A program made the position numbers and the translations under genes. The notes under the pieces were generated by a model, which was given only the letters and a program-made list of their open reading frames with translations, was not told where the DNA came from and made no database searches. Below, piece after piece: positions 1 through 19,213 of a stretch of DNA of 64,000 nt; the first letter of the stretch is position 1, and each line of letters starts with the position of its first letter. This stretch comes from Chloroflexota bacterium (GTDB lineage Bacteria > Chloroflexota > Dehalococcoidia > Dehalococcoidales > UBA2162), in contig JACPPR010000096.1 of assembly GCA_016190895.1 (NCBI GenBank), positions 1,625-65,624 on the forward strand, given 5' to 3'.

Positions 1-27
1 AAATAAATAAAGAATGGAGGTGTAAAC

Positions 28-240
28 ATGGCGAGAGTATTTGTCTATGACGGCAGAGAGCTGCCAGACCCAGACCCGAAGATGGCGGTCGAAGAAGTGC
101 GCCAGAACATGAGCTCTTTCTTCCCCGAGCTAGCCAACGCTGACACCGCTCACAGCAAGCGGAAAAGCAAGACCGACCCGGCAGTGGAAGACGACATCTA
201 CGAGTTCAAGCGGCGAGTCGGCACGAAGGGCCTGTCCTGA
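28..240 (+). CDS. PRTRC protein C-like small ubiquitin-like (beta-grasp) protein
   Basis: 70-aa ORF with GGAGG RBS upstream. Signature VFVYDGRELPDPDP...YEFKRRVGTKG matches my recollection of the PRTRC protein C family. A Gly lies 2 residues from the C-terminus. Confidence 0.7.
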   Translation: MARVFVYDGRELPDPDPKMAVEEVRQNMSSFFPELANADTAHSKRKSKTDPAVEDDIYEFKRRVGTKGLS

Positions 241-286
241 GCACATTCGCTTCGCTCAGTGTAAACTCCGCCGAAGGGGGTTAAGT

Positions 287-535
287 ATGACAGAATCCGC
301 AGATATTGAAAGAGTCGTCGCCGCTCTCAAGAAAGTCCCCGAAAAAAGGCTCCTGATAATCGACCTGGCTAACCGTATCCCGATGAAAGACGGCCAGCTC
401 GATTATGACGCGGTGACAGCAATACAGCCGGAAGTCAACATGGCCGTCGCCGAGGCCAAGATGTACGGAACGCAAACTCTGATGGCAGTAGACAGTCTGA
501 AGAGGCTAATCGCCCGGGGCAAGGACGATGTATGA
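287..535 (+). CDS. hypothetical protein
   Basis: 82-aa ORF co-directional with neighbours. Its stop overlaps the next start by 8 nt. No recognisable motif. Confidence 0.45.
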   Translation: MTESADIERVVAALKKVPEKRLLIIDLANRIPMKDGQLDYDAVTAIQPEVNMAVAEAKMYGTQTLMAVDSLKRLIARGKDDV

Positions 536-1496
536 CCTTGAAACCCTGAGGAGACTGAACGAGCAGGCTTGTTTAGCAGCCGCAGCCCTGGCGAGTAGCA
601 AAAAACCACCCTCCGTGCAGGCAGAGGAAAGGACAAAGGACACTGGCCCTCCTCCGGTATTCCCCCTGTCCGTTCTGGCGCGCAAGCTAATGAGAGGGCC
701 TCCCTCTCTGGCATACTTCATGGCGCTCCTGGAACAGGGCGAATCGTTTACGGGCTTCCGCGACCTTATCAGGGAGTACCTGCCGGAGCACGAGGTCAAT
801 ATCATGGCTGAAGACCTTGACCGTCGTGCGTGGAGATTTAGCCAGCTCTTTAGCCAGTATTACTTTCCTCTCCATGACGATACGCTTTCGGATGAATACG
901 GCATCGGCGACCTGCTGGGCGGCATACCATTCCAGCCGCTGGGCTTTTCATATGAGGGCTATCACGCGTTCGGCGACTTGAGGCAAGGTTACGTCATGGC
1001 TCTGGCGCTTGTAGAGTGCAACTGGGCGGAGGGAGACCCCCTGGGACTGTCAGATGACGAGGAAGACGCCGATGGAATACCAGGCCCTCGGATTCCCATC
1101 CTGGAGGCAGTCGGCGGTATCGTCGGGGAAGGACTTGTCCGCCTTATCCCAGCTAAGGGCTGGTCGGCTGAAGACTTGCACGAGATGACCGATAATACCG
1201 AGTTTGACGGCTTAGGCCTATTCGCGGACTGGGTAAACGGCAACACCGGCTGCATTCACCTCGATACCATGGGCGAGTCACTTGAGATGGAAGGGTTGCC
1301 AGAGTGGGACCCGGAAACAGTTGACGAAATGACCAATGACTGGCACCACGCTACTGAAATCCTGGACAAGATTCACCGGGTAGCGCTGCTGCTTGAGCAA
1401 GACCCGGAGCGCACCTTCAGAAAGCTCGTGGCTCTGCTCACCGACAACAAAGACCTGATTATACCCAAAGAACAGCTGCCTCTGCCTATTGGCTAG
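528..1496 (+). CDS. hypothetical protein in the position of PRTRC protein F; C-terminal QLPLPIG
   Basis: 322-aa ORF overlapping the upstream stop. Acidic. Ends ...KEQLPLPIG, a QLxLxL-type clamp-binding-like peptide. Confidence 0.6.
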   Translation: MYDLETLRRLNEQACLAAAALASSKKPPSVQAEERTKDTGPPPVFPLSVLARKLMRGPPSLAYFMALLEQGESFTGFRDLIREYLPEHEVNIMAEDLDRRAWRFSQLFSQYYFPLHDDTLSDEYGIGDLLGGIPFQPLGFSYEGYHAFGDLRQGYVMALALVECNWAEGDPLGLSDDEEDADGIPGPRIPILEAVGGIVGEGLVRLIPAKGWSAEDLHEMTDNTEFDGLGLFADWVNGNTGCIHLDTMGESLEMEGLPEWDPETVDEMTNDWHHATEILDKIHRVALLLEQDPERTFRKLVALLTDNKDLIIPKEQLPLPIG

Positions 1497-1524
1497 CATA
1501 GTGAATTCAGAAAGAAGGTAAGGA

Positions 1525-2214
1525 TTGGCAAAGAAGAAAACAACTGACTTCAAATGGGCCGTGCCTGACGAGCTCGGCATCCCTCCGGATAAGCTGAGAG
1601 CTCGCCTCGACTTCTACCACCAGGCCGTAGTGCTGAGTATCTACGACCAGGAAGTCTCGTCAACCAGGGTAGTCTCGGCAATGGACGTGGCCCACGCCCT
1701 GGCCAATGACCTGGCGTTCGGTACCGGGCTGCTGCCGCCCGGAACTATATGGTGGCGTAATACCCGGGGCGGGCCGGTGTACGCAATCTACGTAGAGCCG
1801 AAGATATGGAAGGTCGCCCTCGAGCTCGACATCAATTCAGCCCCACGGCGTTTTAATCTGCCTTTGCCCGGTCTTATATTCCTGTGCTCTCCCGGTAAAG
1901 CGCCCTGGGTCTATGCGGTGAAAAAGAAGCCGACGAAAGAGACGGACGAAGTTTACAATGCCCCTCTCTGCAACATCCACGAAAGCGGACTCTCCTGCGC
2001 CGGCACTCACAAGTACCCCACGAGAGTCGCCGATACGGTACAGTCTTTCTTCACTTCGTTCTTCACGGCGAGCGCCAACCTGAAGAACAGGTCTCAGCTC
2101 TACCCGAATAACATCGTCAGGCTCTGGGAGTCTCTGGACAACAAGAAGAAGTTTCCGGCCGCTGACTTGGTCCGTATTGGCAGCCTGAAAGACCTTATGA
2201 ACATGGAGATGTGA
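1525..2214 (+). CDS. PRTRC protein B-like protein, possible E2-like component
   Basis: 229-aa ORF with TTG start after AAGGTAAGGA. Cys/His patch APLCNIHESGLSCAGTH. Sits between the Ubl and the JAB/E1 genes. Confidence 0.55.
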   Translation: MAKKKTTDFKWAVPDELGIPPDKLRARLDFYHQAVVLSIYDQEVSSTRVVSAMDVAHALANDLAFGTGLLPPGTIWWRNTRGGPVYAIYVEPKIWKVALELDINSAPRRFNLPLPGLIFLCSPGKAPWVYAVKKKPTKETDEVYNAPLCNIHESGLSCAGTHKYPTRVADTVQSFFTSFFTASANLKNRSQLYPNNIVRLWESLDNKKKFPAADLVRIGSLKDLMNMEM

Positions 2215-2217
2215 TAC

Positions 2218-2901
2218 ATGAACATGGTCGGGTACTTAGTTAACGTCCCTGAGGGACTCTCCGGGGAGAAAGGTATCTACTACAACTATATTCTGGCTGC
2301 CAACGGCCTTTTCATCGAGGCCTCTAACCCAATGCTCGCCGCCCGGGTGCCGGTCGCCGAGTGCCAAGTTCGAGGGCTGGCGCCCATGAAGGCGAAGATT
2401 GCCCTGACGTACGGAAGTATTCCGCAGCACTTCTTTGACCTGGCTCTCGATACTTTTCTGGCCGCCCCTGATAAAGAGCGCTACGTTGCTGTGACGGCCG
2501 CTGCTGGATACCACCTTTACGTGCCGGTACAGGATGAGAGCGATGCCAGTGTCGTTTATGAGATGGGGGATTCGGTCGTGCTCGATATCCACTCCCATGG
2601 CCACATGCCGGCATTTTTCAGCCATCAAACGGACGATAAAGACGAGACCGGGCTGAAACTGTATGCCGTGGTCGGTAGATTGAACGCCACGCCGGTAGTC
2701 AGGCTGAGAGTCGGCGTCTACGGCTATTTTCACAGCCTGACCTGGCGTGATGTCTTTGACGGCTCCCTGACCAGGGCAGTCGAATCTGAAGAAGAGGAGG
2801 TGAAAACCGAAAGTGACCTACACGGTATCACTGGCCCGGATGCCCCAGAACTTCAGCATCATAGTAGTTGGTTGCGGTGGGACAGGTTCTTTCGTCGCTG
2901 A
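2218..2901 (+). CDS. JAB/MPN-like metallopeptidase (PRTRC protein A position)
   Basis: LDIHSHGHMPAFFSHQTDD gives HxHx7S followed by Asp. This is a near-canonical JAMM motif, with Asp one residue later than in Sx2D. Confidence 0.6.
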   Translation: MNMVGYLVNVPEGLSGEKGIYYNYILAANGLFIEASNPMLAARVPVAECQVRGLAPMKAKIALTYGSIPQHFFDLALDTFLAAPDKERYVAVTAAAGYHLYVPVQDESDASVVYEMGDSVVLDIHSHGHMPAFFSHQTDDKDETGLKLYAVVGRLNATPVVRLRVGVYGYFHSLTWRDVFDGSLTRAVESEEEEVKTESDLHGITGPDAPELQHHSSWLRWDRFFRR

Positions 2902-3664
2902 AGGCTTATGCCGGCTGCTTATTGGCAGCGATATACCTATCCTCCTTATAGACCCTGACCGGGTTGAGCAGCAAAACCTGATTCGCCAGAACTTTTACGA
3001 GGGCGACCTGGGCAAGTTCAAGTCTCAGGCGCTGGCGGAGAGGCTATCCCGGCAGTTCCACCGGCGCATCGCATACAGCGTCTACCCCTATATGCCTGAC
3101 CTTATCGGTGAGAACTGGGGCGGCGGCCTGCGCAGTCCTGCCATCCAGGGGATCATTATCGGCTGTGTTGATAACGCAGATGCCCGGCGGCAAATCGGCC
3201 AAACCCTGCGCTTCGGCAACTGGTGGCTCGATGCGGGTAATGGATTCTCATCGGGGCAGGTGCTGCTTGGCAGCGCTAAAAATCTTGAGCTTCTCGGCAG
3301 TCCTTTTATCAAAGAATCCGGAGAGGTAGAAGGGCTGCCCATGCCATCGTGGCAGCTCCCCAGTCTCCTGGCGCCGCCTACCAGGAAGAAACCTGAGACT
3401 CGGGATTGCGCCGAGGCGGTGGCCGCCGAAGAGCAGAGCCCCGTCATCAACCAGGCTATGGCCACGCTGGTACTGGAATTCATCTACCTGCTACTCAACA
3501 AAAAGCTTACCTGGATGGGGGCTTACATCGATTTGGATGCCGGCACCTTGCAGACAGTACGTGCCGAACCGGAGATAGTAGCCCGCATGTGTGGGGTGAA
3601 GGTCGACACCCTATTTAGGAATGATTGCTCTACAGGCAATCGATATTCACTTAGAAGGAGGTAA
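2813..3664 (+). CDS. ThiF/MoeB/E1-like adenylyltransferase (PRTRC ThiF family)
   Basis: IIVVGCGGTGS Rossmann motif and DPDRVEQQNLIRQ. GTG start 12 nt after GAGGAGG. Overlaps the JAB ORF by 89 nt. Confidence 0.85.
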   Translation: MTYTVSLARMPQNFSIIVVGCGGTGSFVAEGLCRLLIGSDIPILLIDPDRVEQQNLIRQNFYEGDLGKFKSQALAERLSRQFHRRIAYSVYPYMPDLIGENWGGGLRSPAIQGIIIGCVDNADARRQIGQTLRFGNWWLDAGNGFSSGQVLLGSAKNLELLGSPFIKESGEVEGLPMPSWQLPSLLAPPTRKKPETRDCAEAVAAEEQSPVINQAMATLVLEFIYLLLNKKLTWMGAYIDLDAGTLQTVRAEPEIVARMCGVKVDTLFRNDCSTGNRYSLRRR

Positions 3665-3667
3665 CCA

Positions 3668-4075
3668 ATGTCTGACGAAGAAGAGATCCCAGGTTCTGAA
3701 GAAGAAGAGGGTGGGGAAGAACAGGTGGCAATATCTACCGCACAGGAAGCGCCTGCAGCGGTGGCCGCGGATGCTCCTAACACGGAGAAGCCGTCCAATG
3801 AACTGAAGGTCGTAATCATACTGAAGGCCAACAAAGCGATGCTGGGAGTGCAGTCCCCCGATTGTGACCCGGTGTACAAGACCATGGAAGGCGACCTGGC
3901 CGCTGTTCTGAAGGTAGTACCTATACTGGTGGCTGATGCCAGGCTGAAGTGGTCCGCCGCTCCTCGGTATCCGAAGGCTGATTTACCCAAGCCGACAGCG
4001 CCTGCTACCACGACGCCCCCAGCGACAAGCAAGCCTGCTGCTAAAGCGGCCCCGGCGCAACCGAAATTCTTTTAG
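3668..4075 (+). CDS. acidic / Pro-Ala-rich protein (possibly PRTRC protein E-like), C-terminal QPKFF
   Basis: Strong RBS GAAGGAGG. Acidic N-terminus, PA/T-rich tail. Ends ...AQPKFF. Confidence 0.6.
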   Translation: MSDEEEIPGSEEEEGGEEQVAISTAQEAPAAVAADAPNTEKPSNELKVVIILKANKAMLGVQSPDCDPVYKTMEGDLAAVLKVVPILVADARLKWSAAPRYPKADLPKPTAPATTTPPATSKPAAKAAPAQPKFF

Positions 4076-4145
4076 GAGGCAACTATTATCTGCAAGCTTT
4101 TGGGCTGGCCTCCAAAGGCTGAATAAGTGGCCAAAAAGGAGGTGA

Positions 4146-5450
4146 ATGAAATTGGAAATTCAAGTTAACAAACTGAGAGAGCTGATGACCCTGATGAAAC
4201 CGGTAATCCCCAGGAAGTCTACCCTAAAGGTCACCGGCTATATCAGGGTCGGTGACGGCAAAGCGGTGGCGACCGACCTGGAAACCATGGTCATATACGA
4301 CCTACCCCAGGCTACCGAGCCTATGCTCCTGCCTTATACCTCCCTTGCCGATACCCTGAAGTACATACCCGGCAATACACTCAAGATTGAGGCGCAGGGT
4401 AGGAAGCTTTCCCTGGCATGGGACGGCGGCACTGCTGTCTACCCCACCGAGGATGTCGAGGACTTCCCGGTGTTGCCCGAACTGGAAACCAGAGCCGAGG
4501 GCTTAATCGATGGCGACGCTCTGGTATCGGCGATGCAGGCCGCTTTACCCTACACGGCAACTGATAGCCAGCGGCCGGTGCTTAGCGGCGTGACCCTGGT
4601 GTTGGGCAGCCCTATCGAGGTAGCCGCGGGAGACGGCTTCACCATGTCCCATCAGGTGCTGGGTCTTACCTTCCCTCTTGAAGAGAAAGTGATAGTACCA
4701 GCGCGCAGCGTATCCGTCCTGGGGCATGTCTTCGACAAGACGCCGCGGACACCGCCATCAACTGCCGATTCCTTGATATCGGTAATTACCGCCAAGCGGC
4801 AGATCCACATGGCTCTCATCGGCGAAAACAAGCTCAAGGTCGACTTCGGCGAGTCGGCATCCGTCGTCATCAACCTGATACAAGGGAACCCGCCCGAATG
4901 GCTGCAGCTAATCCCCAAGGGACAACCTACCCTGCAGAGCCATCTCTTCGCCCCGCAGTTCGAAGCGGCGGTCAAACGGGTCCGGGACATCGCAAAGGAT
5001 GGTAGCGGTATTGTCCGCATGGCGTTCGCTGACGGCAAGCTGACCGTCTCCGCAGTAGGAGAGGAGCAGGAAATCAGGGCCACCCTGGACGTCATAAGCA
5101 CTCAGGGCGAGCCGGGGAGAACGGCCATCAACTATGCCTACCTTCTCCGTTACCTTACCGGCAAGCAGGGTATCATCACTTTATCCCAATACGACAAGAC
5201 CGGCCCGCTAGCCTTCGAGTACCAGAATTCGCCGCGTGTCCTTATCATGCCCATGTTCGTACAATGGGGCGATGAGGCGGTGGCCACCAAGGAGCCGGAA
5301 CCAGAACCTGAGGCGGTTGAGGAAAATCCGGAAGGGGAGGAACCAGAGGCATCTCTCGAAGAGGAGACTCCTCAGGGAGAGACGGAAGAAACTGTTACCG
5401 CAGCAGCGAAACCAGCCGGCAAGAAACGCCGCAGAAAGACAACTCCCTAA
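4146..5450 (+). CDS. DNA polymerase III beta sliding clamp homologue (element-encoded) with charged C-terminal tail
   Basis: The N-terminus MKLEIQVNKLRELMTLMKPVIPRKSTLKVTGYIRV...ATDLETM and RPVLSGVTLV...AAGDGF resemble DnaN. An extra Glu-rich then KKRRRK tail follows. Confidence 0.8.
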   Translation: MKLEIQVNKLRELMTLMKPVIPRKSTLKVTGYIRVGDGKAVATDLETMVIYDLPQATEPMLLPYTSLADTLKYIPGNTLKIEAQGRKLSLAWDGGTAVYPTEDVEDFPVLPELETRAEGLIDGDALVSAMQAALPYTATDSQRPVLSGVTLVLGSPIEVAAGDGFTMSHQVLGLTFPLEEKVIVPARSVSVLGHVFDKTPRTPPSTADSLISVITAKRQIHMALIGENKLKVDFGESASVVINLIQGNPPEWLQLIPKGQPTLQSHLFAPQFEAAVKRVRDIAKDGSGIVRMAFADGKLTVSAVGEEQEIRATLDVISTQGEPGRTAINYAYLLRYLTGKQGIITLSQYDKTGPLAFEYQNSPRVLIMPMFVQWGDEAVATKEPEPEPEAVEENPEGEEPEASLEEETPQGETEETVTAAAKPAGKKRRRKTTP

Positions 5451-5539
5451 TCTCGACCCGGGAAGGCGGGGGTGCTGGGGCAGGCAAGCTCCAGCACCCC
5501 TCTTTATGAGTGATTTACATACCATGAAAGGAGGTTTTA

Positions 5540-5739
5540 TGAAAATAACTTCTTACGTAGAACTAACACCGGCCCAGGAAAAGACCATTGAGGCACTGGA
5601 AACAGTTACCGTCAGGACAGCGCTTATCAAACCGGCTGTCGTGGCCACGATTCGTACCTTCGCCGCGCAGGAAGTCAGGATAACTATTGCTGCCGATGGA
5701 GGAATTGAAGACGCGGAGGTTCAATATGACAGCCTCTGA
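5540..5739 (+). CDS. hypothetical small protein
   Basis: ATG preceded by AAAGGAGG. The longer track ORF (5236..) overlaps the clamp gene in another frame and looks spurious. Confidence 0.45.
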
Positions 5740-6214
5740 ACGAAAAGTTGAGGGATGGATAGACGACATAGTCGGCGCCCTCTTCGACCCCATCATAGTA
5801 ACGCCCGGTGGCTGGGGAGATGACTTGCCCGAGTGGTTAAAAACAAGGGTTACTCTTGAGCGCCTTGCCGAAAACATAGTAGCAACCAGGGAAGGTAGAG
5901 AAATAACCGCTACTGATGCCGAAGCCGCCTGTTACCTCTTTACTGCCTCGCTCACCGCGCCGATCGGAGGCGACTGGACCCAGATATACCTGTACGTTGC
6001 CGGCGGCGAGTTGAAGGACAAAATGCCGGAAGACATAAAGGTCGAGTCGTTAACCGAGAGCCAGTGGCGCGACTTAAAAGAGTTGAAGAACTGGATTTAC
6101 CGGCAGCGGGTGAAGCACCGCAAGGAAAAGGCACACGGAGAGCGCCGTGAAACCAAAGGAGAAGCTAATACAAAAGAGCTGGAAACCAGGCCGATCCAGC
6201 CAACATTCTTCTGA
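5726..6214 (+). CDS. hypothetical protein, C-terminal QPTFF
   Basis: ATG at 5726 after GGAGGT. Overlaps the previous stop. Ends ...RPIQPTFF. Confidence 0.55.
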   Translation: MTASERKVEGWIDDIVGALFDPIIVTPGGWGDDLPEWLKTRVTLERLAENIVATREGREITATDAEAACYLFTASLTAPIGGDWTQIYLYVAGGELKDKMPEDIKVESLTESQWRDLKELKNWIYRQRVKHRKEKAHGERRETKGEANTKELETRPIQPTFF

Positions 6215-6333
6215 GGTTAGTCGGTCATTCTGCAGAGATAGCGAAGCACACTAAGTGTCGGATTCTGTACGGGTCAGTGTTCTTGAATATGACTCAACTA
6301 TATCTTCTTGCGCGTGTCCTGTTCAATTCAAAT

Positions 6334-6957
6334 CTATGTATGAAGTAATTCTGCTTCAGACAATAACCCTTGATTTTTGATAAAAGCGCTTACAGTCATT
6401 CTGTTTACGCCAAAGATTCTCGCAATCTCACATTTCGATACTTTTCGCTTTAAGAGGACCTGTATCACACTCTCTTGACCAGACAATTTGACCTTACCCG
6501 ATTTACTGCCTATCGGTCTGCCAAGTACAACACCTTCAGCACGTTTGCGAGCGAGTGCCTCTTTGGTTCTCTGACTGATGAGGTTTCGCTCTATTTCAGC
6601 CGATAATCCAAAAGCAAAGGCCAAAACCTTGCTCTGTATGTCCTCACCCAAGCGATAATTGTCCTTTATCGTCCAAACCTTGCATTCTTTACTCATGCAA
6701 AGGTTCAAGATTTCCATAATCATGAATAGATTTCGACCCAAACGTGACAACTCAGCGCAAATAATCAGATCGTCTTTTTGGACTTTCCTGAGTAATTTCC
6801 CAAGCTCGCGTTTGTCATAATTCTTTGTTCCGCTGATAGTTTCCTCAATCCAGCCATCGATTTGAATATTGTTTCGACTCACAAAATTCTCAATCTCAAA
6901 TCGCTGGTTCTCAACTGTTTGTTTCTCGCTGCTCACTCGGATGTATCCGTAATTCAT
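6334..6957 (-). CDS. small serine recombinase (resolvase/invertase, Hin/Gin-like)
   Basis: MNYGYIRVSSEKQ catalytic-Ser motif. C-terminal HTH (KCEIARIFGVNRMTV). RBS GGAGTGAGGAG before the ATG at 6957. The upstream part of the track ORF is repeat-derived. Confidence 0.85.
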   Translation of the reverse strand: MNYGYIRVSSEKQTVENQRFEIENFVSRNNIQIDGWIEETISGTKNYDKRELGKLLRKVQKDDLIICAELSRLGRNLFMIMEILNLCMSKECKVWTIKDNYRLGEDIQSKVLAFAFGLSAEIERNLISQRTKEALARKRAEGVVLGRPIGSKSGKVKLSGQESVIQVLLKRKVSKCEIARIFGVNRMTVSAFIKNQGLLSEAELLHT

Positions 6958-6991
6958 GGTCTCCTCACTCCTTTTCTTGTTAATATATAAC

Positions 6992-7082
6992 GAGCGTTTA
7001 TATTGAGCGAAACAGTGCGGCCAGCCGTTTTGATTCCAACGATAGTTGGACAATCCTTTCCCCTATTGAGCAAAGCATAAAG
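6992..7082. repeat. inverted repeat IR-A, left arm
   Basis: 91 bp. Reverse-complement of 8693..8783 with 2 mismatches (aligned by eye). Confidence 0.85.
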
Positions 7083-7196
7083 CGAAAAATTGAGGCTGTT
7101 GGCATTCCACTCAAAAAGTGGGATGTAAATATTTATCGAGGTGTTCTTACGGGCTATAACGACGCATTTATCATTTCTGGTAAGAAAAAAGACGAG

Positions 7197-7298
7197 CTTA
7201 TTGCTGCCGACCCAAAATCTGCTGAAATTATACGACCGATTCTACGTGGCAGGGACATCAAACGGTATCACTATGAGTTCGCGGATTTGTGGCTGATA
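7197..7298. repeat. inverted repeat IR-B, left arm
   Basis: About 100 bp, reverse-complement of 8477..8578. Perfect 53-bp core at 7209..7261. Confidence 0.85.
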
Positions 7299-7457
7299 GA
7301 TACTCACAACGGGATACGTGAGAAGGGGATACCACCTGTCAATGTGAATGGATACCCTGCTATCAAAGCACACCTGAATCAATTTTATGATGCGCTTGAG
7401 AAAAGGCTTGACAAGGGTGATACGCCCTACAATCTGCGCAGTTGTGCTTATACGGAC

Positions 7458-7480
7458 GATTTTTCCAAGCAGAAAATTGT
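7458..7480. repeat. inverted repeat IR-C, left arm
   Basis: The 23-bp sequence gatttttccaagcagaaaattgt is the perfect reverse-complement of 8265..8287. It encodes DDFSKQKIVW in both cassettes. Confidence 0.75.
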
Positions 7481-7882
7481 TTGGGCTGAACTAGCCAGGA
7501 CAGGGAATGCTTTTACAATTGATACGTTGCATTCCATTGTCTTAAACACATCCTATGTCCTTACATCATCCAGTGACGATATCAACGAATTGAAGTATCT
7601 ATCTGGAATGTTAAATAGCATGACGACGATGTTTTATATGAACTTAATATCTAGTAAATTCGATCAAACAGGATGGCGATGGTTAAAACAATTTGTAGAA
7701 CGGTTACCTATTCCCAAACTATCTTATAATGAGCAACAGCCATTCATCAAGATGGTTGATGAAATTCTCGATTTGAAACGAAAACACCTTGACACCACAA
7801 CTTTAGAAAGAGACTTGGACAAAATGATTTATAGATTGTTCGACTTTTCGGACGAAGAGATACAAGCAATAGAAGCGTGAGC

Positions 7883-10800
7883 TCACTTTCCCATTAAGAA
7901 AGTTCTCTCTTCTTCATTAAATCCATACAAGTCACAAATCATATCATCCAGCCTTTGTTCTTCAACAGTAGTCGGATTGTTCTGACTTTTTGCCTCTAAG
8001 ATCAGACTGACACATGAAATGAAAGGCGTCTTTTCAGCTTCACTCAATATGGGAACCGGAAGTTTCTCTATAAACATCGGCTTATATTCAAAGTACCCGC
8101 CATTCCTTGTGACGCCAAGGCCTCGAACATAAAAATCTGCTACTTTAGAATTCAGCACGGACAGCAAATATCTATCTCCAGGGACAATCATGGTGGCCGG
8201 AGCACTGATGAAGTATAGTTCTCCAACAAGTGCATATTGAGCACGCAGACAAAGGTTTCCCCAGACAATTTTCTGCTTGGAAAAATCGTCCCAATAGCTT
8301 ATGCTATCCTGTGTTTCAAACCATTTGTTATTCGTTTTTTTCCGCGCAGTAACTATTTGGCCACCCACAATATGCTTTTCCCCAGTCTGCCGAAGGCGTT
8401 CTATTCCAAATGAAAGAAGATATTCTTTTACCGATGGATATTGCTCAATATCGTACTTTAGGCTTGGAAAGGTAGCTATCAACCACAAATTCGCGAACTC
8501 ATAGTGATACCGCTTGATGTCCCTGCCACGTAGAATCGGTCGTATAATTTCAGCAGATTTTGGGTCTGCAGCAATAAGTTCATCTCGTTTTTTCCGATCA
8601 ATAATGAAAGCCTCGTTGAATCCAGTTTTTATCCCGTAGTTTATATGTACATCCCACTCCTTGAGTGGAACACCAGCAGTATCAATTTTTCCCTTTATGC
8701 TTTGCTCAATAGGGGAAAGGATTGCCCAACTATCGTTGGAATTAAAACGGCTGGCCGCACTGTTTCGCTCAATATAAACGCTCAAATTGTTCAAGCAATC
8801 ATCCTTGATCACGCACGCTTCGGTTTGACCCTTGTTCTTGCCCTTCTCAAAAATCATAATGCTGACATCCACCGTTGCTGAATCAAAGATTCTCTGCCCC
8901 GCAAAATCTATCAGACGCAGCGGATTGGTCTTGTGGGCAAAGAATTCCCGAATCGCCTTACCATAACCAGCGCGTATCCATTTGTTGGAAGTGATGAATG
9001 ATAAAACTCCGCTATCAGCAAGAAGGCCGTATCCCCTCTCATAAAAAAGGCAATAAATATCACCCATGCGCGCAAAGGATTGATACTGCATCTTTTCCAG
9101 ACGGTCAGCCTCTTGCTGCACAGATTGGAGTTGGATATAAGGCGGATTGGCTATCACCACATCAAATCCATCACTTACGCCAAACATCCACCCGGTGTCG
9201 AACCAATCACATCTTTTGTATGAGAAGGGGTCCCATTCGGCGAGCATGCGAGTCTGGGTCGTATCTTTGGATTCTATCTTCTTGGCAGCTCCCGTGAGAT
9301 CGGTCTTTACTGCGACTAGCATTTTTCTCGCGTGTTCGCTTAGTTGTGCCTGTACCGCTTTGAATTCGTGCTTGATAGCCTCTTTGTTTTCGCTATCGGC
9401 AAAATAACTCTTCCTGAGTGTCGCCAATTTGCTAATCAATTCTTTGTTTTCCATTAATCCCATACCAGTGATCTCGGGTAAGCCGATAAGCGTATTTGCC
9501 GCTACGAACTTGAATTCCAGATTGGGTAAAGGCTCGATGCCTCTGTTTCCCTCATTGTCCAGAACCATCTCATCCACAACGAGAGATAGGAAACACCGCA
9601 GTTTGGCAATCTCCACGGCGATGGGCTGGATGTCCACGCCATAGATAGAGTCACGGATAATCATCAGCTTGCGGATATACGCCCAGTTTTCCCGCTTGAC
9701 GTTCTTCTCCACAGTCTGGCGGACGATACTATCTAGCGTGCTCAGATACTGCTTTCTCCAGATTTCAAGCTTCGGGTCAACCCTCTCCAGCGCGAGCAAC
9801 ATCCGGTGCAGGATGCCCATCGGGAAAGCTCCCGAACCGCAGGCTGGATCTATAATTTTAATTTCCTTCAGAGCTGTAACTACGCTGTTCTTCTGCTCAT
9901 CTGTAAGCTCTACACCCTCATCTTCATACGAGAGCAAAGCAGCAAGGTTGTCCTCAGATATGGCGGTCTTCGTGAGCAGGTACTGCTTCAAAGACTGCTC
10001 CACCATATAATCAACAATGACGCGCGGGGTGTAATAGCTACCGGTTGCCTTGCGGGCGGTCTCGCCCGTCTCTGGCACCACCTCTGCCAGCAGGTTCTCA
10101 AAGATTCTGCCGAGCATTTCTGGGTCGACCGAGACTTCCGCGTCCACAGTGCTGTTTTCATCTATGGTGAAGTTATACTGTTCCAGAACGCTGAAGAAAT
10201 CCTTGAACCAGGTATCCGGTATTTTAAGAGCGTCAATCAGTGATCGCTTATAAAAATCGTTCTCGTGCGGCTCGAACAGCCCGCCGTTCAAGAACGGAAC
10301 TTTGTCTGCCTCCGGAACCGCAACTGGCTTCCGTTCTTTAACCGGCGTATTCATCAAGCCGAAGAAGAGCGGCTCCAGGACGGCATGGTAATAGCCGAGA
10401 TGCGTACTTGCTGCCGCAGTCGAAAGCGCGCTGTCAGAAATAAGCGGGATGCCCGCCGCTGACTTCTTATGCTTCAAGAACCAGCAAAATATCGCCCGGC
10501 CGATAAGCCTGACCGCGAATTCTTCATACGCCTTTTTGTCACCATCGTCGACTGACGACAATGTCAGCTCTTTTGGAAAGCCGCCTCTGCCGGTGAGGCG
10601 GTAGAAATAACGGGCAATTTCCTCATAGAATAGCTTATTGACCTTCTCCACGGAGAAAGCGTCTTTGACAATATCCAAACTGGCAAAGCTACATTCACCG
10701 ATTCTCTTTTTGAAGGTGTTGTTGGTCTGGCCGCTGCTGACAAAGTAAGTGAAGCGGCGGAAATTGCTCCAGACCGTGCGCGCGGCGTCCGGCGTGCCGT

Positions 10801-11143
10801 AAACCAGGCTCAGGCGGAAATTGCCGGACTGGTCGCTGAAGACGAACATGCCGGCGTCATACCGCATATATTGTTTGAGGATTTTCCTGGCCTTTTCGTA
10901 CTGGGCTTTCTTGCCGCTTCGCTCGGTTAAACCCCCGGCGATACTGGCCGTGACCACTACCAGCCTTTCGGCGGGACTGAAGTTGATTTCGCCAATTGCG
11001 TGGAAGCCTGAGAACTCGTCATCATCGTATTCAGAGAGGTCGTCTTCCGCTTCGGCATAGCAGTTAGTTGCATTCTGGAAGAATTCGTTCAAGTAGCCCT
11101 CTACGCCTTTATCGATGACTTTTTGCAGCAGTTTCTTGCTCAT
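7883..11143 (-). CDS. large N6-adenine DNA methyltransferase with C-terminal specificity region (Eco57I / PglX / DrmMI-like)
   Basis: 1086 aa. Motif I IIDPACGSGAFPMG and motif IV VVIANPPYIQ. The start overlaps the helicase stop (ATGA). Confidence 0.85.
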   Translation of the reverse strand: MSKKLLQKVIDKGVEGYLNEFFQNATNCYAEAEDDLSEYDDDEFSGFHAIGEINFSPAERLVVVTASIAGGLTERSGKKAQYEKARKILKQYMRYDAGMFVFSDQSGNFRLSLVYGTPDAARTVWSNFRRFTYFVSSGQTNNTFKKRIGECSFASLDIVKDAFSVEKVNKLFYEEIARYFYRLTGRGGFPKELTLSSVDDGDKKAYEEFAVRLIGRAIFCWFLKHKKSAAGIPLISDSALSTAAASTHLGYYHAVLEPLFFGLMNTPVKERKPVAVPEADKVPFLNGGLFEPHENDFYKRSLIDALKIPDTWFKDFFSVLEQYNFTIDENSTVDAEVSVDPEMLGRIFENLLAEVVPETGETARKATGSYYTPRVIVDYMVEQSLKQYLLTKTAISEDNLAALLSYEDEGVELTDEQKNSVVTALKEIKIIDPACGSGAFPMGILHRMLLALERVDPKLEIWRKQYLSTLDSIVRQTVEKNVKRENWAYIRKLMIIRDSIYGVDIQPIAVEIAKLRCFLSLVVDEMVLDNEGNRGIEPLPNLEFKFVAANTLIGLPEITGMGLMENKELISKLATLRKSYFADSENKEAIKHEFKAVQAQLSEHARKMLVAVKTDLTGAAKKIESKDTTQTRMLAEWDPFSYKRCDWFDTGWMFGVSDGFDVVIANPPYIQLQSVQQEADRLEKMQYQSFARMGDIYCLFYERGYGLLADSGVLSFITSNKWIRAGYGKAIREFFAHKTNPLRLIDFAGQRIFDSATVDVSIMIFEKGKNKGQTEACVIKDDCLNNLSVYIERNSAASRFNSNDSWAILSPIEQSIKGKIDTAGVPLKEWDVHINYGIKTGFNEAFIIDRKKRDELIAADPKSAEIIRPILRGRDIKRYHYEFANLWLIATFPSLKYDIEQYPSVKEYLLSFGIERLRQTGEKHIVGGQIVTARKKTNNKWFETQDSISYWDDFSKQKIVWGNLCLRAQYALVGELYFISAPATMIVPGDRYLLSVLNSKVADFYVRGLGVTRNGGYFEYKPMFIEKLPVPILSEAEKTPFISCVSLILEAKSQNNPTTVEEQRLDDMICDLYGFNEEERTFLMGK
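8265..8287. repeat. inverted repeat IR-C, right arm
   Basis: Partner of 7458..7480. Confidence 0.75.
8477..8578. repeat. inverted repeat IR-B, right arm (inside the MTase gene)
   Basis: Partner of 7197..7298. Perfect core at 8514..8566. Confidence 0.85.
8693..8783. repeat. inverted repeat IR-A, right arm (inside the MTase gene)
   Basis: Partner of 6992..7082. Confidence 0.85.
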
Positions 11144-14100
11144 TTCTGTTCCCCGATATTTTCAATGGCGACAATGACCTCTTTATCCAATTGCCCGATT
11201 TTCTGCTTTATTTTAGCCAGATAATCCGGGCCGAGGTCCAGTTGCAGGCTGCCGAGTTCTTTTTGAACTATGGCAATCTTCGCTTCATCTCCAGCATCTG
11301 CCGCTAGGTTAGCGATGCGTCTTAAAGTGTAATCGGAAAGCGTCTTATAATCCTCGATGTCCTCCACCAGGTTCAACAGGAGTTGGCGGAACTCACGATA
11401 GTTATCTGTCTTGTCCGCTAATAGAGCTTTCACCTTTAAGTGAGCTTTTTTCTCGACGCTCAGCTCGCTGGAAGGCACGCCGGACTTTTCTTTCAGGTCC
11501 TTGATTCTGGTGTATTTCTCCCAGAAGCCGTCACTGAGCGGCAGAGCCTTTTCATCCTTGCCGCATTTAATCAACGGCAATGCTTCTTCAAACAGCAGCT
11601 CGGCCGGTTCTTTGGTTTCTCCTGACATGCCCCTGATAAATAGTCCCATCCCTTTCTTGATAAAGACGGTCAGTGAGTATTCATCGTTTGATTTGGCTAC
11701 TTTCACGCGGGAGGGGAGGGTGGCGATCCTCTGCTTGGTTGCTTCATCGATTTCAGCATACATTCTGCGTATGCCGGTCTGGAAACTCTCCAGCTCCAGC
11801 CCGTCCGGATTTTGCTGAATCTTCTCGAATAATCCGGAGGCCGTGGGTTCTTCGTCTGCTTCAAATACCTTTGAATCCTCCCCAAGGGTATTGTGAATCA
11901 TAAACATCTTCTCTGTGGCGATTTGTCTGCTCCGCACGATCGATGCGCCCTGGAGGGTAGGGAAGAAGTTGTAAACATAGAGGTTATCGAAGACCTTCTT
12001 ACTGATGCGGTTGATTCTGCCGACGCGCTGGACAACTCGGGTGGGATTCCAGGGAATATCGAGATTAATCACGGCGCCGGCGCGGTTAAGATTCACGCCC
12101 TCTGACATTTTATCTGTGGTAATCAGAATCTGATATTTGTTGTTCTGGTTTTTATACGTGGTATCGAAGTTGCTTATGATTTCTGTAGCTTTCGTCTTAT
12201 TCAAATCCCCTTTGACACTGATAATCTGGCCGCTGAATTTCTTTTCCAGGCGAGCCTCGACATACTTAACCGTATCGGCGTATTCGGAGAAGACAATTAC
12301 CTTTCTTATCGGCTCAGTGGCTTTGTCCTTTTGCTTCAGAATCTTGGATAGTTCAGTTTCCAAAGCAGCTAATTTCGGGTCATTATCTACCAATTTCAGG
12401 GTATCCAGTTCATCGAGGATTCTTCCGAAGAGGGCAATATCGGCTTCAATATCTGCCAGGAACACCTTCTTTTGTTTGAATTCTTTATTCAAATCATAGA
12501 CCTTGTAGTGTTTGGGGAAATTGCCCGAGGTGAGCATCTGTTCGAACTTCTCCAACTCCTCGGCAATATCATCCTCGTCATCCTGGTATATCCGGTCGAT
12601 AAGCTCGCGGTCGAGGATATATTTCTCTCCGCTGTTAACGATGAAGGTTTGGACCATTTCGGTGATGCGTTTGAAGTTTTCCATACTCTGCCGGAACGCG
12701 CCAAAGGAACTTTCGAACCTTTTCACCAGCAACCGTCTCATAAAGTCATACAAGTTCTTCTGTATCAACGCTGCCCGGTTTTCCTCTTCGTCAAGTGAGC
12801 CGGGGTCCTTGCCAACAATACCAGCTTCATACTCGAAGGGGCGGTAGATGGTGCCTTTGAAATCGCCGCCCTCACCGAAATATTTTGAAATAACGCGGTC
12901 GTAAAACTCCGACTGCTCCGGGGTCAACGCGAAAAAAGCTTCACACGGGTCTTTGACCTCGGACAACTCATAGATTTCTTTTGAATATACCGGGTCTTTC
13001 TTTAAGTCAATGCGGTTGCGCCGGATGGTGACCGGCGAGATGACCGATTTGATGTCATTGGCCAGGTATTTAGATCGTGCAGTTACCCGTTTCAGGTCAA
13101 TCCTATCTGACTCAAACAGAGCTTTATAGTCCGCTAGGGCGCTTTCGCGCCTGTCTTTATCCGTGGAATTGTGGTTCTTCTTGATATTTGAGAGTCGCCT
13201 GAAAGTTTGGCTATACTGCCGGAATCTTTCATCCAGATTGTTAGACAAGATAAGACTTGATTTACCCGGCACGGTAAACAGCTTGAGCATCGAGAAAATG
13301 TCCGCGGGTGTGTTGTTGAAAGGGGTGGCAGTGAGCAAGATAACGATTTTATTGCGGCAGATATCACTCAAAATTGAGTATGCTTCTGTATCCTGGTTAC
13401 GGAATCGGTGCGCCTCGTCGATGATTACCACTTCGAAGTCGCTCTCATTCTGCACCAGCTTGAGCGTGTCTCTCAAGGTCTCCAAACCGCAACTTCTGAT
13501 TTCCCATCCGTTAAGCTCGAAATCTTGCCTGTATTTGTCCCAGCCGGTCCGGATGCCGTCATCAACCCCGCCCTTGAGAGCTGGCGGGCATATGATTAAG
13601 CCCCTCTTGTACAGGCACTTAGCGACCATTCCTGCAATAATGCTTTTCCCAAGACCAACGACGTCCGATATTATGACGCCATTTTCTTTTTCGATAATAC
13701 TCAAAGCTTGCGCGACAGCATTTACCTGGTAAGCATATTTCTTGTACCCGTTTTTCTCCAGAAGCTGGAAGACGTAATCCTTGATGTCTTTGGGCTTATG
13801 CAATTCCAGATACGTTTTTAGAACAAAAGCAAAGGCTTCGTAAGGAGTTACTTCAGCTATTAGTGTGGCTTCTCTCAGTAGTTTTACTAATTCCCATCTA
13901 AAAGCATCGTCTTCGGTGATTTTGACGGCTTTCGTCCAGAGGTCATCGAAATAATCCTCTGCCTCCTGAGTTCCGTAATCACTGATTTCAACATTAAACT
14001 CATTTTGCTGGCCTAACCCGGCCCGAGTGAGATTGCTACTTCCGGTGATGAAACAACACGGTTTCAAGTCTGCATGGTCGTCCTTCATGTTGAAGAGGTA

Positions 14101-14520
14101 CAATTTGGCATGATTAGGTTCACGAGTCTTCTTGATGATCAGTCTGTTGTCCAGAATGGCCTGAACAAAGAACTTGGCTTGTTCATAGAATTCTTCAGTA
14201 TCAAACTCATCCGAATTGACGGACTTGACGATCGATTCTTTGAACAGTTGTTGATGTTTGTTCCCATCGATTTTACCAACGGCTCCGTACTCAACAAGGC
14301 CGTAGCCTTGTTTATCGACACTGAGACCCACAAGAACCTTGGTAACTACGTCGGGATTGTGCTTGATAGCCTCATACAATTCTCTAATACCGGAGAAATA
14401 GAAGAAACCGACCAGGAATTTCAACTCCTTGCTGAAACCAATGAGCTTTGAGATTCTATCCTTTAGGATCTTGCTGCCCGCATTATTGATGAAGGTGTTT
14501 TGTGACCTTGAGTCCGACAT
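11140..14520 (-). CDS. PLD-family nuclease domain fused to an SNF2-family helicase
   Basis: N-terminal HKD motif NHAKLYLF...ITGSSNLT. SNF2 motifs DVVGLGKSIIAG, DEAHRFRN, LLTATPFNN and VVQRVGRINRI. ATG 14520 lies after AAGGA. The ORF stays open to TTG 14559. Confidence 0.85.
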   Translation of the reverse strand: MSDSRSQNTFINNAGSKILKDRISKLIGFSKELKFLVGFFYFSGIRELYEAIKHNPDVVTKVLVGLSVDKQGYGLVEYGAVGKIDGNKHQQLFKESIVKSVNSDEFDTEEFYEQAKFFVQAILDNRLIIKKTREPNHAKLYLFNMKDDHADLKPCCFITGSSNLTRAGLGQQNEFNVEISDYGTQEAEDYFDDLWTKAVKITEDDAFRWELVKLLREATLIAEVTPYEAFAFVLKTYLELHKPKDIKDYVFQLLEKNGYKKYAYQVNAVAQALSIIEKENGVIISDVVGLGKSIIAGMVAKCLYKRGLIICPPALKGGVDDGIRTGWDKYRQDFELNGWEIRSCGLETLRDTLKLVQNESDFEVVIIDEAHRFRNQDTEAYSILSDICRNKIVILLTATPFNNTPADIFSMLKLFTVPGKSSLILSNNLDERFRQYSQTFRRLSNIKKNHNSTDKDRRESALADYKALFESDRIDLKRVTARSKYLANDIKSVISPVTIRRNRIDLKKDPVYSKEIYELSEVKDPCEAFFALTPEQSEFYDRVISKYFGEGGDFKGTIYRPFEYEAGIVGKDPGSLDEEENRAALIQKNLYDFMRRLLVKRFESSFGAFRQSMENFKRITEMVQTFIVNSGEKYILDRELIDRIYQDDEDDIAEELEKFEQMLTSGNFPKHYKVYDLNKEFKQKKVFLADIEADIALFGRILDELDTLKLVDNDPKLAALETELSKILKQKDKATEPIRKVIVFSEYADTVKYVEARLEKKFSGQIISVKGDLNKTKATEIISNFDTTYKNQNNKYQILITTDKMSEGVNLNRAGAVINLDIPWNPTRVVQRVGRINRISKKVFDNLYVYNFFPTLQGASIVRSRQIATEKMFMIHNTLGEDSKVFEADEEPTASGLFEKIQQNPDGLELESFQTGIRRMYAEIDEATKQRIATLPSRVKVAKSNDEYSLTVFIKKGMGLFIRGMSGETKEPAELLFEEALPLIKCGKDEKALPLSDGFWEKYTRIKDLKEKSGVPSSELSVEKKAHLKVKALLADKTDNYREFRQLLLNLVEDIEDYKTLSDYTLRRIANLAADAGDEAKIAIVQKELGSLQLDLGPDYLAKIKQKIGQLDKEVIVAIENIGEQK

Positions 14521-14585
14521 TGATTGAGTCCTTCGTAGTAAGCTATGTTCCGAAATCAAGTCCCTCTGATTATCGTAATTATACT

Positions 14586-14600
14586 ACGATTGCCAATCGT
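14586..14600. promoter_or_regulatory. 15-bp perfect palindrome in the putative helicase-MTase promoter
   Basis: ACGATTG-c-CAATCGT. On the minus strand it lies between a TTGACG and a TATAAT (14-nt spacer), upstream of the 14520 start. Confidence 0.3.
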
Positions 14601-14797
14601 CAACAAACCATCATCATTGTGCTGCCGGTCAGTGGGGCGATTTTACCCTTCGTGGGTCACAAATCGTCGGCTTGTTTACCGAGCTCGATGTGGTCGTTTG
14701 CGGGTATTCAACCAGAGTGGTAAAATTGCGATTGTTGAAATGTCGTGCTTCCAGTGACTGGACCACTGTGGAGAATGGACACTTAAAAGGATAAGAC

Positions 14798-16858: not shown

Positions 16859-16920
16859 GTATGGCTGCACGGTTTTCTAACTTTTCATCTTCTTCAAGTG
16901 TGATAGATATCAGAAGTTGC

Positions 16921-17000
16921 TGGAGCGCAGCGATCGATCGCTTCTTTTCAAAAAGGAGTTCGGGACTGTTCCGAGTAGCCCAACTGAGGGGATTCGAACC
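16921..17000. repeat. direct repeat copy 1 with tRNA 3'-end-like core
   Basis: Core 16957..16999 is agttcgggactgttccgagtagcccaactgaggggattcgaac. It matches 19939..19982 with 2 mismatches plus 1 indel. Weaker similarity extends about 35 bp to the left. Confidence 0.7.
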
Positions 17001-17219
17001 GGCTATCAAAACACTAGCGGGAAAGTCTTCTCGAAAGTTTTACCTTTTGAACGGAATGGTGGACCTTAGCGGGTTCGGACTTTATAGACGTGGTCCCTTA
17101 GCGTAGCTGGCTGGCCATTGGAAGGTTATTGAAAAGACTCTCCGTCCCCTTTTGGTGGAACCTCTAGGGCCACGCTACCAATACGGTAGTGTATCATACA
17201 TACCACCAATACCGAATAC

Positions 17220-17247
17220 TTGACAATCACCATCACACGATTATAAT
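17220..17247 (+). promoter_or_regulatory. near-consensus sigma70-type promoter (TTGACA-N16-TATAAT)
   Basis: TTGACA at 17220..17225 and TATAAT at 17242..17247. It lies about 85 nt upstream of ATG 17333, which has a GAGGAGGG RBS. Confidence 0.55.
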
Positions 17248-19212: not shown

Positions 19213-19213
19213 T

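Follow-up and report, generated by a model that had tools for sequence, protein, structure and literature searches.

What does a ubiquitin-like conjugation cassette do at the left edge of a Chloroflexota contig, and on which proteins would it act? The question is raised by a 64,000-nucleotide (nt) stretch of a Chloroflexota (Dehalococcoidales) assembly (GCA_016190895.1, contig JACPPR010000096.1, positions 1,625 to 65,624 of the forward strand), which is called the window here and whose coordinates are used throughout. An earlier note on this DNA had proposed that its first six open reading frames (ORFs) form a cassette of a ubiquitin-like protein (Ubl), an E2-like protein, a JAB peptidase, and a ThiF/E1 enzyme of the PRTRC (ParB-related, ThiF-related cassette) kind, and Pfam and NCBIfam searches support this core. 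The cassette was found to be the first part of a conserved nine-gene module, which continues with a DnaN-like sliding clamp homolog and includes three proteins ending in peptides that resemble clamp-binding motifs. Conserved residues make it very probable that the cassette is catalytically competent and belongs to the 6d/PRTRC class, a kind known from sequence analysis since 2006. A functional coupling of the cassette to the clamp is possible, if somewhat doubtful. The complete proposal, namely, a working Ubl conjugation and deconjugation cascade of an integrative mobile element that is recruited to clamp-loaded DNA, has in our judgment slightly less than an even chance of being right.

The six cassette ORFs were recovered as the earlier note had listed them (Table 1), co-directional and tightly packed with short spacers or overlaps, and GGAGG-type ribosome-binding sites precede most of them. 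The motifs quoted for them are likewise present: VFVYDGRELPDPDP and YEFKRRVGTKG-LS in the Ubl, APLCNIHESGLSCAGTH in the E2-like protein, IHSHGHMPAFFSHQTDD in the JAB protein, and VVGCGGTGS and DPDRVEQQNLIRQ in ThiF. What the note had missed was the downstream half, with the clamp and the clamp-motif proteins. Searches with tblastn against related DNA showed that the conserved module runs past the end of the ThiF gene at 3664 and occupies 28-6214, with the gene order Ubl, o82, o322, E2, JAB, ThiF, o135, clamp, and o175 kept at 41 to 100% amino-acid identity. The DNA searched comprised 6 metagenome contigs with an identical Ubl, 14 GTDB genome loci, 1 IMG/VR contig, and 2 further long contigs (individual loci are given below as L numbers). 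The nine-gene synteny was present in more than 20 loci, mostly in Dehalococcoidales metagenome-assembled genomes (MAGs), and extended to relatives of only about 45% identity. There were local rearrangements: L014 and L018 have the JAB and ThiF genes in exchanged order, and in L021 the clamp gene lies just upstream of the Ubl gene. Because the order is kept across relatives despite such rearrangement, all nine genes were assigned to the module, and the recurrence of the same genes in the same order in orthologous neighborhoods means that the cassette is no chance grouping. No promoter-like site was found on the + strand in the module, and terminator-like sites were no more frequent there than in shuffled sequences, so nothing speaks against a single transcription unit; the sequencing runs that hold module sequence were DNA runs only. 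An Rfam scan of 1-6400 gave sub-threshold noise only, no tRNA was found in the window, a nucleotide search of 1-6300 against plasmids gave no match, and neither did the E2-like protein against phage proteins.

Family searches and alignments of the four core proteins, in which the window's clade was set against canonical PRTRC proteins of annotated plasmids, carry the case for a functional cascade. The Ubl matched PF14454 (Prok_Ub) with 49.4 bits (Pfam gathering cut-off [GA], 25) and TIGR03738 (PRTRC_C) with 48.7 bits, above the cut-off of 45.95; it was the sole module protein to reach its curated PRTRC cut-off, which bears out its earlier description as PRTRC protein C-like. R3, F5, D14, P15, P33-E34-L35, F60, G65, K67, and G68 were invariant in an alignment that included canonical PRTRC_C. 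The invariant C terminus, G65-x-K67-G68 (nt 220-231), is followed by a two-residue tail, LS. G68 is the last residue in eight of 13 sequences, and the remaining ones carry one to three further residues; extra residues of this sort are the usual sign of a precursor that a partner peptidase would trim. The homolog in L021 has an extension of about 60 amino acids (aa). The Ubl is 100% identical in six contigs, though adjacent genes differ by 4 to 15%.

The 229-aa protein, which the earlier note had put at the place of PRTRC protein B, matched PF14460 (Prok-E2_D) with 66.1 bits (GA, 25), and TIGR03737 (PRTRC_B), at 55.9 bits below its cut-off of 131.45, was still the best NCBIfam match. Its active-site loop reads P147..N150..G155..C158.G160 (nt 1963-2004). 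N150, G155, C158, and G160 were invariant in 27 sequences including canonical PRTRC_B, and P147 was among the invariant columns. The placement thus held, while the Cys singled out earlier, C149 of 'APLCNIH', is not the invariant one: it is replaced by Ala in several relatives ('APLCN' in the window). Because C149 varies and C158 (codon 1996-1998) does not, C158 is the candidate catalytic Cys. The loop pattern, P-x-x-N-I-x-x-x-G-x-S-C, resembles the HPN...C loop of eukaryotic E2s, with Ala instead of His before P147, and a weak hhalign match (E, 0.028) aligned N150 and C158 with N77 and C85 of UBE2D2, whose sequence was entered by hand. Within the clade, the conservation of H162 is 90% or more; in the three canonical or plasmid sequences it is unaligned to a His. 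In the UBC fold the catalytic Cys lies on the loop that follows the beta-meander. An AlphaFold2 (AF2) model with a predicted local distance difference test (pLDDT) score of 78.2 shows its elements in a UBC-like order: first a helix, then a meander of four strands and some additional strands, next the loop with the Cys, and finally three helices. PDB sequence-profile searches gave nothing meaningful for the Ubl, the E2-like protein, or o322.

For the JAB-like protein, TIGR03735 (PRTRC_A) was the best NCBIfam match (63.5 bits; E, 1.8e-17; cut-off, 101.8, not reached). PF14464 (Prok-JAB) scored 24.1 bits, just under its GA of 25, and an N-terminal JAB-N/DUF2016-like domain was matched by PF09436 at 22.2 bits (GA, 24.3; E, 1.2e-4). 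The full JAMM motif is present, E87 ... H125-S-H127 ... S135 ... D139/D140 (nt 2590-2637), and its E, HSH, FS, and D elements were invariant in 24 sequences including canonical PRTRC_A; the complete motif and the TIGR03735 match agree with the JAB label. The final 29 codons of the JAB gene and the opening 29 of the ThiF gene share the same DNA (2813-2901). A conserved-looking JAB tail, 'W..W.R.F', was rejected as a motif: it is an out-of-frame reading of the GxGGTG-coding DNA of the ThiF gene, and it is absent from L014, L019, and L020, whose JAB and ThiF genes have no overlap.

The E1 enzyme matched PF00899 (ThiF) with 55.3 bits, above the GA of 28.1, and TIGR03736 with 127.8 bits, its best NCBIfam match and below the cut-off of 144.75. 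Its landmark residues are G20-C-G-G-T-G25, D47..R58-Q59, D120, and the invariant C199 (nt 3407-3409). In 23 sequences including canonical PRTRC ThiF, the GxGGTG and DxDxVxxNxxRQ motifs, a Lys, the Asp of the cvD motif, and the Cys of 'DCAEA' (Cys199) were invariant, as expected of the ThiF/E1-like adenylating enzyme that had been proposed. The GTG at 2813 is the start codon, and the N terminus, M[TS]YT[VI], is conserved. The best solved relative was UBA5 (E, 6e-10), a minimal single-domain E1. ThiF, MoeB, and MccB are also among the sequence relatives of the E1, and they suggest a reading without protein conjugation: ThiF and the small protein would serve sulfur transfer or the modification of peptides or cofactors in a ThiS/MoaD- or MccB-like way, and the 'E2' would be a non-catalytic partner. 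A Foldseek search of the E2 model against the PDB, which returned nothing at an E of ≤0.001 and no UBC chain among the 50 matches listed, leaves the UBC fold without structural confirmation and so fits such a reading. We nevertheless hold it to be highly improbable, given that the E2-like loop has an invariant Cys and an invariant Asn, that the JAMM peptidase is always present, that the Ubl belongs to Prok_Ub and not to ThiS/MoaD, that the context is a mobile element, and that no rhodanese, cysteine desulfurase, thiazole, or molybdopterin genes lie nearby.

The cassette can be compared with several known systems. Operon class '6d' was predicted by Iyer, Burroughs, and Aravind in 2006 as a combination of a ubiquitin-like protein, a JAB with JAB-N, an E1-like protein, an E2-like protein, and a novel alpha-helical protein (PMC1779556). 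All five components occur in the window module: the small Ubl, with a predicted beta-grasp fold and a conserved C-terminal Gly; the JAB with its extra N-terminal alpha+beta domain; the E1-like enzyme; the E2-like protein; and, as counterpart of the fast-diverging all-alpha protein with invariant charged residues, o322, which is predicted to be all-alpha and in which H146, D246, and E290 are invariant. The '6d' E2-like proteins have a conserved Cys, lack the classical HPN His, and have an absolutely conserved His C-terminal to the Cys (PMC1779556), whereas the corresponding H162 of the window protein is conserved in its clade and not in the alignment with canonical members. The '6d' paper describes neither the clamp linkage nor the C-terminal peptides.

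With PRTRC cassettes (TIGR03734-03742), which are found on proteobacterial plasmids and integrative and conjugative elements (ICEs) and were represented by Polaromonas pPNAP01, Aromatoleum EbN1 plasmid 1, and Paraburkholderia PGU19 p3, the module shares the core order C (Ubl), large helical protein, B (E2), A (JAB), and ThiF, the invariant catalytic residues, the Ubl C terminus G-x-K-G, and a location on mobile elements. The canonical order, however, is ParB, E, C, F, B, A, and ThiF. ParB is absent from the window module and its relatives; E precedes C, whereas o135 follows ThiF and o322 takes the place of F; o82, the DnaN-like clamp, and o175 are extra; and the hosts are Chloroflexota for the window module and Pseudomonadota for PRTRC. 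PRTRC B, A, and ThiF are about 20 to 35% identical to their window counterparts, whose scores lie below the NCBIfam cut-offs. Among the module proteins, PRTRC_E and PRTRC_F had no NCBIfam match even at an E of ≤10, and hhalign was negative. With protein C alone at its curated cut-off, the case for PRTRC membership in the strict sense is weak. What is new in the window module is the lack of ParB, accessory proteins that are different or unrecognizably diverged, the Chloroflexota hosts, and the tie to a clamp through motif-bearing proteins. The closest annotated ThiF relatives, at 34 to 36% identity, belong to cassettes of cyanobacterial and Chloroflexia plasmids (Leptolyngbya BL0902 and "Ca. 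Chlorohelix allophototropha"), which have an o322-type helical protein before the E2 and a Ubl with a C-terminal extension; in the regions fetched, these cassettes have no clamp gene and are neighbored by RecG and helicases.

Only 27 nt of the window precede the Ubl gene, and the presence of ParB was therefore tested on relatives. The earlier note had supposed that the window start cuts the cassette and that ParB/ParM-like partners lie upstream. In those relatives that have upstream sequence, the cassette instead begins at the Ubl gene, and RadC, a DUF1281_C protein, and small ORFs lie before it. Three PRTRC ParB proteins gave only tblastn matches with an E of >0.5 in 292 kb of window and related loci, and no ParBc domain was found among the called genes up to 10 kb on either side in relatives. 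Farther from the relatives' cassettes are genes for an ArdC-like anti-restriction protein, a primase, and serine or tyrosine integrases; RadC and these genes mark the setting as an integrative mobile element. Tail-like ORFs upstream in L015 gave no support for a prophage in a PHROG scan; the element may be an ICE, an integrative mobilizable element (IME), or phage-like. Judging by the relatives and by groundwater metagenomes, the hosts of the module are Dehalococcoidales-type bacteria of groundwater and sediment. One short contig, L007 (CAYOUM010000195.1, 2856 nt), is 100% identical to window 1295-4000 and was assigned to a Methanomassiliicoccales (archaeal) MAG, most probably through misbinning of a short mobile-element contig, the other relatives all being bacterial and mostly Dehalococcoidales.

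Could the module be an anti-phage defense system like Bil/Bub, in which infection would lead to attachment of the Ubl to structural proteins of the phage and the JAB would restrain the system? The earlier note had mentioned antiphage activity of related bacterial Ubl-E1-E2-JAB operons, and this is correct for Bil, whose operons have the same four activities, protect against phage, and encode an E1 with tandem IAD-AAD-CYS domains (PMC11601596). Bil/Bub and the module have the Ubl/E2/JAB/E1 logic and a mobile or defense-island setting in common; the window module adjoins a low-GC defense island, and L021 has large defense-like genes downstream. The hint found no support for this cassette, for which PADLOC gave generic E1-domain matches only and none for the Ubl, the E2, the JAB, or the accessory proteins. 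The window E1 is a single 283-aa domain, unlike the Bil E1 with its tandem adenylation domains and Cys domain, and the module also differs from the cyclic oligonucleotide-based antiphage signaling system (CBASS), in which Cap2 is an E1-E2 fusion acting on the CD-NTase; Bil, Bub, and CBASS Cap2/Cap3 have no clamp. The neighbors of most relatives are small mobile-element ORFs and replication genes, not defense genes, and the island itself has another GC content and one-third to one-fourth of the module's read depth, as variable cargo would. We consider a defense role distinctly unlikely.

One gene that sets the module apart from these systems encodes the clamp. Its product consists of a three-domain DnaN-like core to about residue 372, which ends in ..VLIMPMFVQW, and a tail of about 60 aa (window 5259-5450 region). 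It matched TIGR00663 over model positions 1 to 365 of 367 with 79.5 bits, below the equivalog cut-off of 137.65, phrog_947 ('DNA polymerase processivity factor') with 3e-42, and PDB DnaN chains with an E of 1.5e-13; it thus appears to be a DnaN homolog and not the housekeeping equivalog. E. coli DnaN ends in ..VVMPMRL, and by this comparison we take the ..IMPM.. at the core end to be the cleft-forming segment. The tail has an acidic stretch followed by KKRRRKTTP, and the clamps of L010, L017, and L020 end at the core; such a tail could gate the peptide-binding cleft or bind DNA. The clamp gene adjoins the cassette in 17 of the 17 relatives that reach its position, rearranged loci included.

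Three of the other module proteins end in peptides that such a clamp might bind. Clamp-binding peptides usually lie at a terminus, on a flexible tail, and fit into the cleft of the clamp. The clamp-binding consensus is QL[S/D]LF or QxxLF, and the Hda peptide QLSLPL is a tight binder (PMC12309361). The end of o322, KEQLPLPIG, contains QLPLPI (residues 316 to 321, nt 1473-1490), which resembles the Hda hexapeptide; P313, K314, E315, Q316, and L319 are at least 90% conserved. The tail of o135, ..AQPKFF (QPKFF, nt 4058-4072), resembles QxxLF; 13 of 17 orthologs end in QP[SK][FM]F, and 2 more have the close variants TPKFF and RPSMF. The tail of o175 is ..IQPTFF (QPTFF, nt 6197-6211), with LQPSMF.., LQPTLFEF, and VQPSFF as ortholog ends. 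The motif is kept in orthologs though the preceding linkers vary. Three of the nine module proteins carry such a C-terminal motif versus 0 of 58 other selected window ORFs, and composition shuffles produced it in 0.2% (o322), 0.04% (o135), and 0.07% (o175) of cases. In ten related loci 10 of 298 ORFs had the motif, 9 of them within the module; one motif-bearing ORF in these loci is an extra gene beside the clamp, ending in QLSLPIPAWELR (QLSLPI..). Comparable ends occur in the other cassettes: QITLF closes the E-like protein of the cyanobacterial cassette, and all 28 Burkholderiaceae PRTRC_E proteins examined (28/28), which are built of a small domain, an acidic linker, and a C-terminal peptide, end in GT[DN]L[AST/L]SL[FL], plus or minus one further residue. 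We take the PRTRC_E tail to resemble the QAMSLF peptide of the clamp-loader delta subunit.

Several points weigh against a conjugation cascade recruited to the clamp. On the side of the cassette, these are the Foldseek result for the E2 model, a one-residue insertion within the JAMM motif of the window JAB, before the Asp (SHQTDD versus SPQ-DD), and the literature, in which a search found no functional study of PRTRC (in agreement with the earlier note, which had described such cassettes as lacking an experimentally established function) and nothing functional on Prok-E2, Prok_Ub, or leading-region ubiquitin. On the side of the peptides, the QLPLPL-type tail of o322 is clade-specific and absent from the long variants L012-L016, L019, and L021; among 148 representatives of the o322 family, 29 have QLxLxL-type tails and 34 have TLMEIF-type tails; the o135 homolog of L021 ends in KSMM; and Pro at motif position 2 (QPxFF) is unusual, the consensus residue being Leu. 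Short hydrophobic C termini can also serve as degrons or as docking sites for other partners, and the adjacency of the clamp could merely reflect a neighboring replication module.

The last point leads to an explanation with two independent, adjacent modules. A Ubl cassette, including o82 and o322, would modify host proteins, e.g., to disable host defense proteins or to serve addiction or establishment on entry, with an o322 peptide unrelated to the clamp, and the clamp, o135, and o175 would be replication genes of the element. Canonical PRTRC cassettes do lie among plasmid entry and establishment genes (ParB, SSB, helicases, a large N6-methylase, DUF932, and MobH relaxase), relatives of the module lie near ArdC-like and RadC genes, and an addiction-like or protective role was proposed by Iyer et al. 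in 2006 (PMC1779556). The variable o322 tail, not universal in its family, and the fetched regions of the cyanobacterial and Chlorohelix plasmid cassettes, in which no clamp gene is adjacent, point the same way. The clamp adjacency, though, survives rearrangements in every relative that covers the position, and o322, embedded between the Ubl and E2 genes, has a near-perfect Hda-type hexapeptide in the window's clade. Also at odds with two modules are the QITLF end of the cyanobacterial E-like protein and the ..L[AST]SLF ends of PRTRC_E, which suggest that clamp docking is general and independent of an element-encoded clamp. We regard the two-module explanation as fairly unlikely.

For the single, clamp-directed module, we infer the following course of events from the gene set, the protein families, and the conserved residues and peptides. 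The JAB/JAMM peptidase would trim the Ubl precursor (...GTKG-LS) and expose Gly68, which the UBA5-like ThiF E1 would adenylate before taking the Ubl as a thioester on Cys199. The Ubl would then move to Cys158 of the Prok-E2_D enzyme and from there onto a protein target. o322 might be an adaptor or E3-like factor that docks on the element's clamp, and o135 and o175 might dock likewise; because these three proteins would sit on the clamp, conjugation would be placed on the clamp-loaded DNA of the element. The likely target would be the clamp itself or proteins of replication or repair that are bound to it, the JAB would later take the Ubl off and reverse the modification, and the purpose would probably be control of element replication or establishment.

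In eukaryotes, the ubiquitylation and SUMOylation of PCNA (Rad6-Rad18 and Ubc9-Siz1) rely on Ubl machinery that is brought to a sliding clamp by short docking peptides. The likeness to the module is one of analogy only, since the beta clamp is not homologous to PCNA and the module has no RING E3. A wider claim would be that PRTRC/6d cassettes in general are Ubl conjugation machines working on DNA sliding clamps, the mobile-element counterpart of PCNA modification. The Chloroflexota elements may make this link explicit, with their own beta clamp and with the helical protein and two others docking via QLPLPI and QPxFF; in canonical cassettes the PRTRC_E tail peptide and ParB may play this part, and Ubl on the clamp or on clamp-bound host proteins may license or protect replication of the incoming element. 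ParB is itself a CTP-dependent DNA-sliding clamp, and the idea that Ubl is conjugated at a DNA clamp would thereby unite the cassettes in an attractive way. As a general statement we think it unlikely. For the class as a whole, which was among the first predicted bacterial ubiquitin-like conjugation systems and is common on plasmids and ICEs, the tie to a clamp and three peptide-bearing partners provide a first concrete, cheaply testable lead on the target. If the peptides bind, the search would narrow to the clamp and its clients, and the system would be a bacterial analog of PCNA modification. The module also extends the class to mobile elements of Dehalococcoidales-type subsurface bacteria.

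The remaining data concern the accessory proteins. o322 had no Pfam, NCBIfam, PHROGs, or PADLOC match; its AF2 model (mean pLDDT, 77.3) is entirely helical, and fold searches of this model against the PDB and BFVD returned nothing at an E of ≤0.001. An exhaustive hidden Markov model search defined a large unannotated family, with 722 representative clusters (50% identity) at an E of ≤1e-3 and 245 at an E of ≤1e-30. There are 24 invariant columns, among them M1, P46, H146, G154, W235, D246, W260, W272, and E290, and hhalign aligned o322 with the protein preceding the E2 on the Chlorohelix plasmid with a probability of 88%. An identification of o322 with PRTRC_F was rejected (BLASTP, no similarity; hhalign probability, <1%); the correspondence is positional only. 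Some family members have an extra conserved domain of about 110 aa (..SDI.W...V..L..GG.W.APMGF...K..) in mid-protein or at the C terminus; it was seen in L012, L013, L015, L016, and L021, whose homologs have about 430 aa, and in L019, P0290, and P0328.

No Pfam, NCBIfam, PHROG, or PADLOC match was obtained for o82, which lies between the Ubl gene and o322 in every relative with this position covered and whose gene overlaps that of o322 by 8 nt at its 3' end. The spacer between the Ubl gene and o82, 20 nt long in most relatives, holds in the window a 31-nt insert, GCACATTCGCTTCGCTCAGTGTAAACTCCGC, at 241-271, of which the window has a single copy and which is found in L004 as well. Read depth in the source metagenomes rose to 600 to 870 in the first bin (1-667) against about 100 for the rest of the module, and dozens of contigs match only the stretch at 241-271 and diverge on both sides; on account of this depth and divergence, the insert was judged to be a short dispersed repeat of the community.

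o135 and o175 had no Pfam or NCBIfam family match. From its N terminus, o135 consists of a tail of acidic character, a domain in which about 60 aa are conserved (E.K..K..G.Q.P.CDP), a linker rich in Pro, Ala, and Thr, and the QPKFF end. Its identification with PRTRC_E (PF19556) was also rejected, as BLASTP found no similarity and the hhalign probability was <1%; the two are alike in architecture only. At window 3683-3788, contigs of three groundwater runs lack about 104 nt in the acidic N-terminal region of o135, a length polymorphism among co-occurring variants. o175 combines a conserved PGGWGD.LP.W domain with a basic helix, and its likely start is the ATG at 5726, which is preceded by a GGAGG site.

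Table 1. Coordinates of the module genes and of the adjoining island in the window
Feature	Position (nt)	Strand	Basis or remark
Ubl (70 aa), Prok_Ub/PRTRC protein C	28..240	+	PF14454 and TIGR03738 matches
o82 (82 aa), conserved protein without family match	287..535	+	Kept between Ubl gene and o322
o322, all-alpha protein (predicted), PRTRC_F position	528..1496	+	Predicted model; QLPLPI near C terminus
E2-like protein (229 aa, TTG start), Prok-E2_D/PRTRC protein B-like	1525..2214	+	PF14460
JAB/JAMM metallopeptidase (227 aa), PRTRC protein A-like	2218..2901	+	TIGR03735; JAMM motif
E1, single-domain ThiF/UBA5-like adenylating enzyme (283 aa, GTG start)	2813..3664	+	PF00899; TIGR03736
o135, C-terminal peptide QPKFF	3668..4075	+	Synteny and ortholog tails
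DnaN-like beta sliding clamp homolog (434 aa)	4146..5450	+	TIGR00663, phrog_947, PDB DnaN chains
o175, C-terminal peptide QPTFF	5726..6214	+	Synteny; longest ORF begins at 5687
Resolvase/invertase gene	6334-7053		Island
197-aa ORF, like C-terminal target-recognition part of type IIG enzyme	7287-7880		Opposite orientation to type IIG gene
Type IIG restriction-modification enzyme, Eco57I/MmeI-like (1086 aa)	7883-11143	-	Island
PLD-nuclease/SNF2 helicase (1139 aa)	11140-14559		Island
UvrD-like helicase	14798-16858		Island
Two ORFs of unknown function	17333-19212		Island
dCTP-deaminase-like protein	19214-19861		Island

Directly after the module lies the low-GC (0.42 to 0.50) defense-type island, at window 6334-19861. 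In the source groundwater metagenomes the module was three to four times as deep as the island, which suggests that several related module variants coexist and that the island is variable cargo. Beyond about 21 kb the window holds chromosomal genes, including those for Crp, hemerythrins, DnaE, STT3, glycosyltransferases, and solute-binding proteins. Within the island, inverted repeats of about 300 nt (6992-7303 and 8472-8783), which are 86 to 92% complementary, flank the 3' end of the type IIG gene and the 197-aa ORF, and the resolvase/invertase gene is immediately beside them; window 6334-8783 has the look of a shufflon that would switch the specificity of the type IIG enzyme by inversion.

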